IMG/VR virus record: IMGVR_UViG_3300020419_000004
From: a virus
Strand: one strand, 5' to 3'
Length of the DNA stretch: 64,000 bases
Positions 1 through 21,292 of this stretch are shown here, piece after piece (the stretch's first letter is position 1; every line of letters begins with the position of its first letter). A model generated the notes under the pieces. It did not search any database. It saw only the letters and a list, made by a program, of their open reading frames with translations, and had not been told where the DNA came from. Both the position numbers and the translations under genes were made by a program.

Positions 1-2409
1 GCTGCTCTTATATCACCTGATGGTACTGCATCACCTGCTGATAGTGCATTTACTAATGTTACTACACAACAGTATACACCTGGTGATCCAGCCCATCCAC
101 TACAGTTCGATACTCAGTTAAACACATGGTACGTGAGATGTACTGCTGCTACATCTAGTAGTGCTAGTGTATCATCTACTGGATACAAAGGTATCCACTA
201 TCATTTGGGTAACGATTCATTCTATGCTAATGCACTATTCACTGGTGCATCATACATGCAACGTGTACCTGACAATAGATCATCAAGAGACAGAACTTAC
301 AGAGTCAGATACGAAGTAGACAGCTCTCCTTCAGCTCTATCAAGAGAACCTATCAATGGTTACGTTATCCAACCAAGGAACGTACCTACGGGTCAGTCAT
401 ACGGGGACGTATATTATATCTACGACATTAAAACTGAACAGGAACTGATTAAATCAGTCCAGAACGGTATCTATTATATGACTGTTATCAAGGGTAGTGT
501 GTCACCTACCAATGGTAATGTCAATACATTTGCATTCTCACAGAACATCAATAACCTATATCCTACGTTGGATAAGGATAACCCAACTGAAGACTCTGGT
601 GCAGCAACATCTATTGCAAGTAATACTACTGTTGGTCTTGTTACTACAACAGATGGATCTGTTGAGGATAAGTCATTATCAATAACCAAAGAAATTGTCA
701 ATGCCTTCATCGTTGAGAATAGAAACGCATATGTAAACTCATCCACTTCAGACAGCTCTGTCTCTGGATACATCACTCTTGAAGCAAGAGATGGTGAGAC
801 TAGTGAAGTAGACAAGAACAAGAGGATGATACCTGTTAATAGCACAGGTGGTACACAGACAGAACTTAGACGACCTAGTATCCTAAGATCTGGTAACCAC
901 ACATTTGAATATGTTGGTTTCGGACCAGGTAACTATTCAACTGGTTTACCTTCAGTTCAGAACAGAGTTCTTACTGATGCTGAGACACTACTAGCACAGT
1001 CACAGAAGGAAGACGGTGGTATCGCATTCTACTCTGGACTTAACAGTAATGGTGACCTATTCATTGGTAACACTAGAATATCTGCTGTTACTGGTGAGGA
1101 AGCATCACTTGATACTCCATCACTATCAATCGTTGGTGAGACTGCAAACCTACGTCCTGTATTTGATGAGATCATTATCAGAGACAAGATCACAGTTGAT
1201 GACACTAACCTAGAGTCAGTATTCAAAGGTTTCTTATCAGTCAACCAAGACTTGAACGTATCCAAATCATTATTTGCTGAGGATGTCACAATTACTGGTG
1301 AGAGTGCAGACAACGAAGGAACTAAAAAGTTTGATGTTGTAACTACTGATCCTAATGGTAATACAACTGCTGCTAACAATGGTGACTATGCACTATTAAA
1401 TAACGTCACTCGTGGATCATCCTTAGGTTGGTATTGGAATACATCACAGAATGCATGGGTTAAGATGGGTCTTACCGATACTGGTAACCTTAATATAACT
1501 GGTGGATCTGGTACTGGTGATGCAACTGGTGATGTACAATTTAAGAACGGACTAGGTATTGACATACAGTCAACTGGTACATTAAATGTAAACAGTGGAA
1601 CTACTACACTTGGTGGTGAGTTAGATGTAACAGGTAGCGTTGATATTAATTCAACACAGTCATCTACAACTAACAGCACTGGTGCATTGAAAGTGGATGG
1701 TGGTGTTGGTATTGCCGAGAACCTCAACATGGGTGGTAGTGCTGACATTGATGCTAATCTAACAGTAGCAGGTAACGTAACTTTAGGTACCTCTGGTGCT
1801 AATAACGTCACATTTAATGCTGATATTAATAGTAATCTCCTACCTAATACCACTGGTGCACATAACTTAGGGTCAGTTGGACAGAAATGGGGTACAGTAT
1901 ATGCTGACGCAATCGTTGGTATCACCAATGTTACAGCAAGTATCACAGGTAACGTTACTGGTAATGTATCTGGTTCATCTGGAAGTTGTACTGGTAATGC
2001 TGCTTCGGCAACTGTATTACAGACAGCAAGAAATATTGGTGGTGTATCGTTCAACGGTGGTGCAAGCATTAATCTACCAGGTGTTAACACTGCAGGTAAC
2101 CAGAATACATCTGGAACTGCAACTCAGGCAGACAACATAAATATTGATGAAGCAAACGGTAACACCAACTATCAGGTATCGTTCTCAGCACTGAACAATG
2201 CAGGATACAACAGACAATACATTGATAGTGATGACAGTCATTTAGTGTATAATCCTGGCACTGCTACACTATCTGGATTAAATATTTCAGGTAGCACTAT
2301 AACAGCAAGCACATTTGGTAACTCAAACCAAAACGCATACGGTGCAAGGACAGTATCTACTGGTAACCCTAGTGGTGGATCCGACGGAGACATTTGGTAC
2401 AAGTATTAA
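1..2409 (+). CDS. Tail fibre / virion structural protein, C-terminal part (5' truncated by window)
   Basis: Frame +1 is open from base 1 to TAA at 2407-2409. G/T/S/N-rich fibre-like sequence ending PSGGSDGDIWYKY, a typical fibre-tip motif. Confidence 0.8.
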   Translation, partial: AALISPDGTASPADSAFTNVTTQQYTPGDPAHPLQFDTQLNTWYVRCTAATSSSASVSSTGYKGIHYHLGNDSFYANALFTGASYMQRVPDNRSSRDRTYRVRYEVDSSPSALSREPINGYVIQPRNVPTGQSYGDVYYIYDIKTEQELIKSVQNGIYYMTVIKGSVSPTNGNVNTFAFSQNINNLYPTLDKDNPTEDSGAATSIASNTTVGLVTTTDGSVEDKSLSITKEIVNAFIVENRNAYVNSSTSDSSVSGYITLEARDGETSEVDKNKRMIPVNSTGGTQTELRRPSILRSGNHTFEYVGFGPGNYSTGLPSVQNRVLTDAETLLAQSQKEDGGIAFYSGLNSNGDLFIGNTRISAVTGEEASLDTPSLSIVGETANLRPVFDEIIIRDKITVDDTNLESVFKGFLSVNQDLNVSKSLFAEDVTITGESADNEGTKKFDVVTTDPNGNTTAANNGDYALLNNVTRGSSLGWYWNTSQNAWVKMGLTDTGNLNITGGSGTGDATGDVQFKNGLGIDIQSTGTLNVNSGTTTLGGELDVTGSVDINSTQSSTTNSTGALKVDGGVGIAENLNMGGSADIDANLTVAGNVTLGTSGANNVTFNADINSNLLPNTTGAHNLGSVGQKWGTVYADAIVGITNVTASITGNVTGNVSGSSGSCTGNAASATVLQTARNIGGVSFNGGASINLPGVNTAGNQNTSGTATQADNINIDEANGNTNYQVSFSALNNAGYNRQYIDSDDSHLVYNPGTATLSGLNISGSTITASTFGNSNQNAYGARTVSTGNPSGGSDGDIWYKY

Positions 2410-18240: not shown

Positions 18241-18495
18241 ATGCTAAATCAAACTTCACTCAACCTCACCGATCTCCCAAAGAAGGACTATAACGGTTGG
18301 TCAGACTGGACTACATGGAATTGTGCCTTATGGGTTGGAGGTGACGAAGGACTCTATAACCTCGCTAAGGACTGCGAGTCATGGTTCGACTTCATCATAT
18401 GCATGCAAGATATGGGCATGAACCAGACTCCAGATGGTGCAAAGTGGACAGAAGCAGACTATGACGAGATGATGGAGATGATGGATGAATTGTAA
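18241..18495 (+). CDS. Hypothetical phage protein (YNGW family)
   Basis: YNGWSDWTTWNCALW...DEGLY motif. Confidence 0.75.
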   Translation: MLNQTSLNLTDLPKKDYNGWSDWTTWNCALWVGGDEGLYNLAKDCESWFDFIICMQDMGMNQTPDGAKWTEADYDEMMEMMDEL

Positions 18496-18823: not shown

Positions 18824-18946
18824 ATGACGCGACTCATCATTTTAACTTTGGCAATCTTTTGCATAGGACAAAACACATTTGCTCGAACGCAATTATCAAA
18901 CGTGTTAGACTTAACAAGTGATGTAATTAGACCTAGTTCATACTAG
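18824..18946 (+). CDS. Small protein with hydrophobic N-terminus
   Basis: MTRLIILTLAIFCIGQNTFA..., 40 aa, ending inside the terminator. Confidence 0.45.
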   Translation: MTRLIILTLAIFCIGQNTFARTQLSNVLDLTSDVIRPSSY

Positions 18947-18956
18947 GTCTTTTTTT
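18929..18956 (+). terminator. Intrinsic terminator
   Basis: AGACCTAGT-TCAT-ACTAGGTCT followed by a T run. Confidence 0.85.
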
Positions 18957-19057: not shown

Positions 19058-19180
19058 ATATACTATACACATATACTATTATACTCATATACTATACACA
19101 CATATAATATACTATGACACATATATAACTGTCACATATACTATACTATAGTCAATATACTATACTATAATAATACTATA
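19058..19180. repeat. AT-rich short direct repeats (ATATACTAT x6)
   Basis: Exact copies at 19058, 19071, 19087, 19107, 19136 and 19155, plus degenerate ones. Confidence 0.8.
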
Positions 19181-19196
19181 CACATATATCACACGT

Positions 19197-19349
19197 ATGA
19201 ATTCACTATCTAATGACACATATGAGTCACTACTCAATGACAAGTTTATTAAAGAACACTTCACAGTAATAACATATGGATCACTAGAAGAGGAACGCGA
19301 AGACTTAGGGTATTGCCCTTGCTGTTGCTCACCACCTGAGGAAGAGTAG
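19197..19349 (+). CDS. Small Cys-cluster peptide (not in ORF track)
   Basis: 50 aa ending GYCPCCCSPPEEE. Confidence 0.45.
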   Translation: MNSLSNDTYESLLNDKFIKEHFTVITYGSLEEEREDLGYCPCCCSPPEEE

Positions 19350-19361
19350 CACTCAGGCAGT

Positions 19362-19394
19362 ACCGCCCCCCCGTCGCGGTTTTGCCCCCCGCCC
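19362..19394. other. G/C-run element (hairpin on plus strand, G-quadruplex-capable minus strand)
   Basis: ACCGC-C6-GTC-GCGGT-TTT-G-C6-GCCC in an AT-rich genome. Confidence 0.6.
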
Positions 19395-19489
19395 TAGCTT
19401 AACTTTCTATATAAGTCTAACCTACAAAGTCTTGCATGAGCGAGCGTGATATAAAATAAAAAATTTTCCCAAAATTGCCCAGACCCCCA

Positions 19490-19669
19490 ATGAAAACTTT
19501 CGATGTAGAAACCACAGTAACCTATAAGCAGTGGATCAGAGTGGATGCCGATAGTGAGTATGCTGCTCAGAAACGTGTCAATGATATGGCATGGGACGTA
19601 ACCGCAATCCAGTATCAGACGATGGAGAGTGCGAATGCCACAGGAACGGTTAGAGAGTGCCCAAACTAA
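19490..19669 (+). CDS. Hypothetical protein
   Basis: Probable start at ATG 19490; MKTFDVETTVTYKQWIRVDADSE. Confidence 0.65.
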   Translation: MKTFDVETTVTYKQWIRVDADSEYAAQKRVNDMAWDVTAIQYQTMESANATGTVRECPN

Positions 19670-20103
19670 TATACTCGGATGACGTAGCAAACGTTTATCT
19701 AACTGAAGATGTCAAAGCTGCCCTAAGAGATTTTCTTGGCAGATACCCTCTGAATTGCAAAGAGAGCATCCAACTACACTGGAACAAATCTGACACCGCA
19801 CACTACGCTGTAGTAGCAGTGGGTTTCAGAGAACTTGGAGTAGATATTGAGTACATGAGAGATAGAAGGTTCGGAGATATATCTCGAAGATACTTTCATA
19901 AGGATGAAGAGACAGTCAATATCAACATCTTCTATGAACTATGGTGTAAGAAAGAAGCATACACCAAGTGGAAGAAAGGTAAGATATCTCAGTATATGTC
20001 TCAGAAGATAGACAAGGATGTGTCTCAACTTGTACCACAATCGAGGTATTCTCTGATAGAACTAGAGTTACCTGATAATCTCAAAGGATATCTCTGCTAT
20101 TGA
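19657..20103 (+). CDS. 4'-phosphopantetheinyl transferase (compact Sfp/AcpS superfamily)
   Basis: LGVDIEY (GxDxE) and FYELWCKKEAYTK (WxxKEAxxK) signature motifs. Confidence 0.85.
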   Translation: MPKLIYSDDVANVYLTEDVKAALRDFLGRYPLNCKESIQLHWNKSDTAHYAVVAVGFRELGVDIEYMRDRRFGDISRRYFHKDEETVNINIFYELWCKKEAYTKWKKGKISQYMSQKIDKDVSQLVPQSRYSLIELELPDNLKGYLCY

Positions 20104-20128
20104 CATTGTGTTCAAACTCAGATATAAT
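20100..20128 (+). promoter_or_regulatory. Consensus sigma70 promoter
   Basis: TTGACA (20100-20105) N17 TATAAT (20123-20128). Confidence 0.8.
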
Positions 20129-20154
20129 AAATAAAACATCTACACTCCTTGCCA

Positions 20155-20331
20155 ATGCAATACGTCTTGTACAACGAACATCTAGACCAAGTAGGTACTT
20201 ACAGTAGTATCTACGATTTACGTAAGTTTCTCTGTGATCGAAAGTATGAGATAGACTGTGACAAGGACATAGGGGATACATTTGATTATATCAAACATAT
20301 CAAGTGGACATTCGACATCAAACAAAATTAA
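20155..20331 (+). CDS. Hypothetical cyanophage protein
   Basis: Probable start at ATG 20155; TAATG overlap with the next gene. Confidence 0.7.
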   Translation: MQYVLYNEHLDQVGTYSSIYDLRKFLCDRKYEIDCDKDIGDTFDYIKHIKWTFDIKQN

Positions 20332-20832: not shown

Positions 20833-21026
20833 CAGAATACGATTTCTGGTTCGACGAAGAAATACCAAAGGCACAGTACGGAAGTCTCCAATGTTGGATA
20901 TCAAATGAGAAGACGCAACCATGGTCAACTGCATACGATATGACAATACATAGTATTATGTACGAGATAGCGTCAAAGAACGGATTAATATTAGGAGGGA
21001 GCGAATGCCAGCAGTCACCCGTATAG
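20829..21026 (+). CDS. Hypothetical protein
   Basis: ATGA overlap. Confidence 0.65.
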   Translation: MTEYDFWFDEEIPKAQYGSLQCWISNEKTQPWSTAYDMTIHSIMYEIASKNGLILGGSECQQSPV

Positions 21027-21292
21027 GAGATGCAGACACACCTCATTGTTCTGGAATGTCCAGAGCACAGGGTTCGTCTAATGTGTTTTGCAATGGTATA
21101 GGTATCTCTCGTCAAGGAGATAACAATACTGTTCACCTTAAACCTCCTGCAGCACCTGTATGTCCTCCTCATTCAGCATCAATAGCTACAGGAAGTACAA
21201 CTGTCTTTGTAAATGGCAAAGGATGTGGTAGAGTAGGAGATGCAACATGTACTAGCGTCGCTGCTGGTTCATCAAACGTATTCGCAGGTTAA
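21005..21292 (+). CDS. gp5.4: PAAR-repeat spike tip protein
   Basis: MPAVTRIGD, VFCNG...RQGD, VFVNGKGCGRVGD and SSNVFAG motifs, with His/Cys metal ligands. Confidence 0.92.
   Translation: MPAVTRIGDADTPHCSGMSRAQGSSNVFCNGIGISRQGDNNTVHLKPPAAPVCPPHSASIATGSTTVFVNGKGCGRVGDATCTSVAAGSSNVFAG

Follow-up and report, generated by a model that had tools for sequence, protein, structure and literature searches.

The gene under study lies in a window of 64,000 nucleotides, the whole stretch of viral DNA that was analysed, and encodes a 148-aa protein that is a member of the 4'-phosphopantetheinyl transferase (PPTase) superfamily. Judged from its predicted structure, the protein reads as a miniaturised Sfp-like, two-lobed PPTase rather than an AcpS. 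[quoted passage not shown] Both the transferase activity and the ACP as its substrate are inferred.

The coding sequence starts with GTG and overlaps the preceding ORF (64 codons) by 13 nt. This start is sound, since homologues begin at the same position, where they carry Met (N-termini MPKLIY/MPQVIF). The two PPTase signatures that the earlier note had listed within the 148 residues, GVDIE and WCKKEAYTK, were both read directly from the sequence, and its remark that the usual FNxSH motif is WNKSD in this protein was borne out by a profile alignment to Sfp, which places D46 on His90. The coordinates of the gene, its motifs and the features around it are shown in Table 1.

Table 1. Features of the PPTase gene and its surroundings; positions refer to the window.
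Feature	Position	Strand	Basis and remarks
3' part of long tail-fibre gene, PHM1_031 homologue; window and contig start inside it	1..2409	+	tblastx
Sigma-70-like promoter candidate, 10/12	19114..19142	+	Consensus match only; could drive the 19197-20103 unit
64-aa ORF overlapping the PPTase start	19475..19669	+	Adjacent to PPTase in ~13/47 relatives with enough upstream DNA
Compact Sfp-like 4'-phosphopantetheinyl transferase CDS	19657..20103	+	ORF, PF01648, phrog_23098, AlphaFold2 model
WNKSD motif, residues 42-46, counterpart of Sfp F86-N-I-S-H90	19780..19794	+	Read from sequence, profile alignment
GVDIE motif, residues 61-65, with the counterparts of Sfp Mg2+ ligands D107 (D63) and E109 (E65)	19837..19851	+	D63 and E65 invariant in family
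WCKKEAYTK motif, residues 96-104, W/KEA type; E100 corresponds to Sfp E151, K104 to K155	19942..19968	+	Both invariant
Residue pairs, phage PPTase to Sfp: D46-H90, D63-D107, E65-E109, E100-E151, K104-K155			Profile alignment
Perfect TTGACA-17-TATAAT, 12/12 consensus	20100..20128	+	Consensus match; would serve the downstream 60-aa gene
Conserved 60-aa gene, PHM1_078 homologue, T4-GC 391	20149..20331	+	48-62 nt after PPTase in 46/73 related loci

A Pfam search with PF01648, named as a check in the earlier note, gave a match above the gathering score (29.2 versus 25 bits, E 1e-6, residues 60-112), and a six-frame search of the contig with the same profile returned the same match. The identification as a phosphopantetheinyl transferase made in that note is thus upheld by PF01648, by the alignment to Sfp, by the AlphaFold2 model and by the structural matches. 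Among the PHROGs the protein matched phrog_23098 (E 3.6e-39), an entry annotated as 'unknown function'. None of the NCBIfam equivalogs was passed: AusB scored 36.5 versus 225 bits, HetI (NF042922) 27.9 versus 370 and AcpT 13.7 versus 174, all of them far sub-threshold and partial matches restricted to the C-terminal halves, and no AcpS family match at the sequence level was obtained for the phage PPTase in the NCBIfam search. A W/KEA motif characterises the HetI group, reportedly the only PPTase type in cyanobacteria.

The AlphaFold2 model (pLDDT 88.7, pTM 0.83) comprises an N-lobe of residues 3-56, with beta-beta-alpha-beta-beta topology, and a C-lobe of residues 61-147. The best PDB match of this predicted structure was Sfp (4mrt_A; E 1e-4; Z 12.2, rmsd 3.3 A, 133 residues; Foldseek, VIA-align), model residues 11-148 being aligned on Sfp 1-206 across both lobes, with a chain of only 148 aa and a reduced N-lobe. 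The top 13 structural matches were all Sfp-type, Sfp being followed in the ranking by PcpS, human AASDHPPT and mycobacterial PptT/PptAb; chains of the AcpS type appeared from rank 14 and aligned to residues 58-148 only, with Z about 8. A profile-to-PDB search aligned the family to Sfp residues 83-157, with Sfp matched at 3.3e-7. Because the Sfp match spans both lobes and the AcpS chains cover only residues 58-148, the predicted fold was read as Sfp-like and not as AcpS.

That the protein is instead a group I, homotrimeric holo-ACP synthase of the AcpS type with an N-terminal extension is the least probable of the explanations considered. It would agree with the small size of the protein, and with the superposition of AcpS structures, single domains of ~120 aa whose active sites lie between the subunits of a trimer, on residues 58-148, a fold common to the phage C-lobe; the PPTase was also labelled 'ACPS' in Sullivan 2010 (PMC3037559). 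The presumed substrate, an AcpP-like type II ACP, is a further point of likeness to AcpS. On the other hand, the best matches are Sfp-type in the PDB sequence search, in the structural comparison over both lobes and in the partial AusB/HetI/AcpT hits, and residues 1-57 are predicted to fold as a beta-beta-alpha-beta-beta lobe with a strand equivalent to FNxSH, a feature of the Sfp N-lobe. AcpS is devoid of the folded N-lobe of ~57 residues, with its Sfp-type motif-1 strand, that is found in the phage PPTase model.

Compared with Sfp of Bacillus subtilis (PDB 1qr0, 4mrt), the prototype of group II, the modelled phage protein aligns with both lobes of the alpha/beta pseudo-dimer, keeps the residues equivalent to D107, E109, E151 and K155, and has a motif 3 that fits W-x-x-K-E; the longer form of this motif, (W/F)xxKE(A/S)xxK, is matched by WCKKEAYTK. 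Identity is only about 21%, the chain has 148 aa versus 224 aa in Sfp, and ~70 Sfp residues, mostly from N-lobe helices, are without counterpart; the phage family as a whole is far shorter than the Sfp-type enzymes of about 220-240 aa. In motif 1, FN(I/L/V)SH(S), the conserved His (Sfp H90) is absent and its place is taken by Asp46, consistently Asp in the family, while Sfp Ile88 is replaced by Lys44. The protein has the profile match, the catalytic residues and, in the model, the fold of the superfamily, and departs from the canonical Sfp type in two features, length and the motif-1 His. Since His90 of Sfp contacts the CoA phosphates, its replacement by Asp means that CoA binding by the phage PPTase may differ or be weak.

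These departures also bear on whether the protein is still a transferase. A degenerate or repurposed PPTase fold, which would carry out no phosphopantetheine transfer from CoA and might instead work with a different nucleotide-linked donor or serve solely for binding, is considered very unlikely, even if it would explain a length of 148 aa versus about 225-240 aa for Sfp-type enzymes with half of the N-lobe lost, the presence of WNKSD instead of FN(I)SH with the Asp at least 90% conserved, and scores that fall well short of all the NCBIfam PPTase equivalog cut-offs. Sequence conservation argues against it. A total of 135 homologues were found among 5.8 billion proteins, every one derived from a marine metagenome or virome and almost all of them 135-170 aa long, and the family has diverged to about 40% identity. 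The alignment of 33 homologues nevertheless contains 21 invariant positions, including W42, S45, G61, D63, E65, W96, K99, E100 and K104, and conservation reaches at least 90% at N43, K44 and D46. The invariance of D63, E65, E100 and K104 points to strong constraint on all three metal ligands and on the catalytic Lys. Moreover, both lobes are kept in the AlphaFold2 model, and wherever this could be checked the PPTase occurs together with a carrier protein whose serine is intact. Bacterial (Bacillota) MAGs, too, contain short PPTases of the Sfp-like kind, with 150-180 aa, so that small size alone is not unique to the phage proteins. Going by the model, the 148-aa family would be one of the smallest two-lobed PPTases and could be of interest to users of Sfp-type enzymes as labelling tools.

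The family is sharply delimited. When 1.84 billion cluster representatives were searched with its profile, phage members appeared at E of 1e-19 or below and generic PPTases at E of 1e-15 or above; six representatives had E 1e-30 or better and were followed by a gap and then by thousands of generic PPTases. When 185,579 species genomes of bacteria and archaea were scanned by motif, only partial matches appeared, with 25-49% identity over the best segment and none of them cyanobacterial. As the cellular matches are only partial and none is cyanobacterial, no donor lineage can be named for the phage PPTase.

The window is part of a linear IMG/VR contig of 129,240 bp, which comes from a T4-like Prochlorococcus myovirus and is estimated to be about 71% complete. 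Its nearest cultured relatives are the T4-like myoviruses of Prochlorococcus MED4 P-HM1, P-HM2 and MED4-213 (genus Eurybiavirus), with all three of which it is collinear. By tblastx, the window was collinear with P-HM1 from P-HM1 coordinate 24,329 onwards and therefore begins inside the long tail-fibre gene PHM1_031. At least one other long IMG/VR contig of the same clade (G001) also starts in or near this long tail-fibre gene.

The PPTases of P-HM1 (PHM1_077) and P-HM2 (PHM2_076), annotated as '4'-P-pantetheinyl transferase, T4-GC 500', and of MED4-213 (CPMG_00044) show 44-50% full-length identity to the window PPTase; they share its motifs and, at 148-152 aa, its size class. In the window the gene closes an island of small early/middle genes, and the PAAR/gp25/gp6/gp7 baseplate block begins ~0.9 kb downstream of it. 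In P-HM1 and P-HM2 it occupies the same slot, preceded by several small genes and followed by the T4-GC391 gene and PAAR/gp25/gp6/gp7. The small genes upstream of the PPTase in the three cultured phages differ from those of the window. The three phages also carry a 'toxin' gene (T4-GC504; in P-HM1 PHM1_082, L001:6348-6857) between the PPTase and PAAR, just upstream of the latter, which the window lacks: no counterpart was detectable at 20835-21004, and the PAAR homologue (21005-21292) directly follows the small genes. In view of the adjacency counts in Table 1, the small flanking ORFs were rejected as obligate partners of the PPTase. Upstream of the unit, a terminator-like hairpin (18929-18950) precedes the first of the two promoter candidates; the -35 hexamer of the second, at 20100-20128, contains the PPTase stop codon. 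A Pfam search of the small neighbouring ORFs gave no match except DUF7249 (E 2.3e-13) for the 84-aa ORF at 18241-18495. This ORF falls within the interval of ~18.2-20.1 kb for which G006, a relative without the PPTase, has a different set of small ORFs.

In the earlier note, the gene had been described as a stand-alone PPTase with no carrier protein nearby. The literal part of this description holds, as an ACP is not present in the window: no PF00550 match was found in the whole 129-kb contig by profile search, the P-HM1 ACP protein used as query had no match in the contig, and the ACP helix-II motif was absent from all open frames of at least 60 aa in the window and contig. The gene cpeT, which is the neighbour of the ACP gene in relatives, was likewise not found in the contig. 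P-HM1, P-HM2 and MED4-213, in contrast, carry a visible ACP partner. The lack of the ACP-cpeT block is attributed to the contig beginning in the tail-fibre gene, downstream of the ACP position in relatives; for the same reason, the lack of an ACP in the contig was rejected as evidence of its true absence. The shared starting point of this contig and G001 suggests an assembly breakpoint in or near the tail-fibre gene, by which ACP block and PPTase come to lie on different metagenome contigs.

A single PF00550 gene is present in each of P-HM1, P-HM2 and MED4-213, 22.5-22.7 kb upstream of the PPTase in the first two and 23.5 kb away in the third, and among 50,697 phage records a full-length ACP was found only in these three phages, which have the PPTase. 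In P-HM1 it is PHM1_027 (L085:10001-10474), a 158-aa protein annotated as 'acyl carrier protein ACP, T4-GC 457', located 22.4 kb upstream of the PPTase and about 5.3 kb upstream of the equivalent of the window start. Its gene adjoins cpeT, which in other relatives lies 0.4-3.4 kb downstream of the ACP gene. The candidate tailoring enzymes noted in P-HM1 are two annotated oxygenases, TauD-family PHM1_004 and 2OG-Fe(II) oxygenase PHM1_043, neither of them linked to the ACP.

To extend this comparison, IMG/VR relatives of the first gene of the window were fetched and the 35 loci with at least 7.5 kb of upstream DNA were counted. An ACP gene was located 5.3-8.9 kb upstream of the window-start equivalent in 32 of these, and in two of the three apparent exceptions (G014 and G023) a PF00550 gene lies just beyond the edge of the fetched locus. 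In all, 34/35 relatives with enough upstream DNA have an AcpP-like ACP 5-10 kb upstream of the window start. We infer from them that this phage has an ACP gene as well, 5-9 kb upstream of the first base of the window and within the missing ~29% (roughly 50 kb) of its genome. The ACP family comprises more than 97 IMG/VR loci, and both the DSL serine and helix II (DSLDMVELVMFLEE) are invariant in 86/86 sequences. The core of the phage ACP just passed TIGR00517 'acyl_carrier' (70.5 versus a cut-off of 70.45 bits). This core is extended by ~30 residues at the N-terminus and, at the C-terminus, by a tail of ~60 residues that is Lys-rich and of low complexity.

All five PPTase-positive records that cover the ACP position contain an ACP (P-HM1, P-HM2, MED4-213, the 83-kb G003 and the complete, 200-kb G014). 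The reverse does not hold: in G006 (77.6 kb), G007 (87 kb), G012 (82 kb) and G015 (complete, 189 kb) the ACP is present and the PPTase slot is covered, and the PPTase is absent. Of the ACP-bearing loci compared, G006 is the one nearest to the window (~80% nucleotide identity over the first 1.6 kb of the window), and both G006 and G007 are collinear with the window around the PPTase, with other small ORFs in its slot. PPTase thus implies ACP and not the reverse, the ACP being the more widespread of the two. From the four long or complete relatives with ACP and without PPTase it appears that the host enzyme can presumably prime the ACP and that phages of this kind can do without a PPTase of their own. 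In this Prochlorococcus myovirus clade the ACP thus counts as near-core, and the PPTase as a flexible gene of the small-gene island. With an ACP 5-10 kb upstream of the window start in relatives, and in every PPTase record that could be checked, the description as a PPTase without a carrier does not stand for this lineage; the 'orphan' status of the gene is a product of contig truncation inside the tail-fibre gene and is corrected here. The earlier note had also stated that a cognate ACP cluster elsewhere in the genome would make this a routine pathway gene: through the relatives this is very nearly the situation found, but in the contig itself the ACP was not seen.

The ACP and PPTase pair (T4-GC457 and T4-GC500) was described in 2010 by Sullivan et al. 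as 'ACP and its synthetase' (PMC3037559). In the transcriptome of P-HM2 infection, both are middle genes: PHM2_076, the PPTase, was classed as Mid(B) under either light regime, and PHM2_029, the ACP, shared this class in light and was Mid(C) in the dark (PMC5082946, S2 Table). Flanked by late baseplate and fibre genes, PHM2_029, PHM2_030 and cpeT make up an island of middle-class genes (PMC5082946). No functional study of a cyanophage PPTase, or of a phage-encoded ACP and its phosphopantetheinylation, was found in the literature.

The likeliest alternative to priming of the phage's own carrier concerns the choice of substrate. As in the auxiliary-metabolic-gene idea of the earlier note, the PPTase could act mainly on host carriers, Prochlorococcus AcpP or others, and sustain fatty-acid, lipid or alkane synthesis after host transcription stops, the phage ACP being at most a secondary substrate. 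The core of the phage ACP is very AcpP-like (helix II DSLDMVELVMFLEE, TIGR00517 passed), so that a PPTase recognising it would probably accept host AcpP too. Expression of the P-HM2 PPTase in the middle class, together with metabolic genes, would suit this explanation, as would the separation of the ACP and PPTase genes, which are not adjacent but 22-28 kb apart and do not form one operon. Against this, the PPTase never occurs without a phage ACP where this can be checked (5/5 records), a co-occurrence that counts against a host-directed enzyme because such an enzyme needs no dependency of this kind. The host, besides, already has a Sfp-type PPTase serving its own ACP. A third point comes from the ACP sequences. 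At residue -3 from the serine, an E or D was found in 5/5 PPTase-positive records (loci L085, L005, L006, L084 and L225) and an M or G in 4/4 PPTase-negative ones (L129, L135, L196 and L223), in a small and related sample. P-HM1 (...DDLELDSL...) and G006 (...DDLMLDSL...) differ at residue -3 alone, in an otherwise similar context. Across 86 ACPs, residue -3 is M in 42, E in 20, D in 16, G in 3 and N in 3; bacterial AcpP has Met or Gly there, as do the ACPs of PPTase-less phages. The tracking of PPTase presence by this residue hints at adaptation to the phage carrier, and the pattern may represent enzyme-carrier co-adaptation, although the sample is small and not phylogenetically independent. 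Taken with the other two points, a mainly host-directed PPTase appears improbable, and the proposal of the earlier note that the phage may activate or re-route host ACP is not sustained as the main role in this lineage, whose collinear relatives have their own AcpP-like carrier, although the enzyme may act on host ACP as well.

A more far-reaching version of the preferred reading was also considered. The mini-PPTase and the phage ACP might form a co-adapted and partly host-independent priming pair, in which the reduced N-lobe and Asp46 would reflect changed recognition of CoA or of the carrier, and the carrier with its Lys-rich tail would deliver a phage-specific acyl cargo, beyond adding to host fatty-acid synthesis. 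This is regarded as a possible but rather doubtful elaboration.

Under the preferred reading, priming of the phage ACP, the PPTase would take the phosphopantetheine arm of CoA and attach it to the DSL serine that is invariant in this carrier. The supply of holo-carrier during the middle phase would be self-sufficient and independent of the single Sfp-type PPTase of the host. Cyanobacteria reportedly lack AcpS and depend on Sfp-type enzymes (Copp and Neilan 2006). The phage ACP would dock with enzymes of host FAS II, which are its most likely partners because the core of the ACP resembles that of fatty-acid-synthesis ACPs. As an annotation the PPTase is ordinary, its pairing with a phage ACP having been known since 2010. 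What the comparison indicates for these cyanophages is that nearly all of this clade of abundant Prochlorococcus myoviruses retains an AcpP-like carrier, much extended at both the N- and the C-terminus, and that only some of its members add a mini PPTase of their own.
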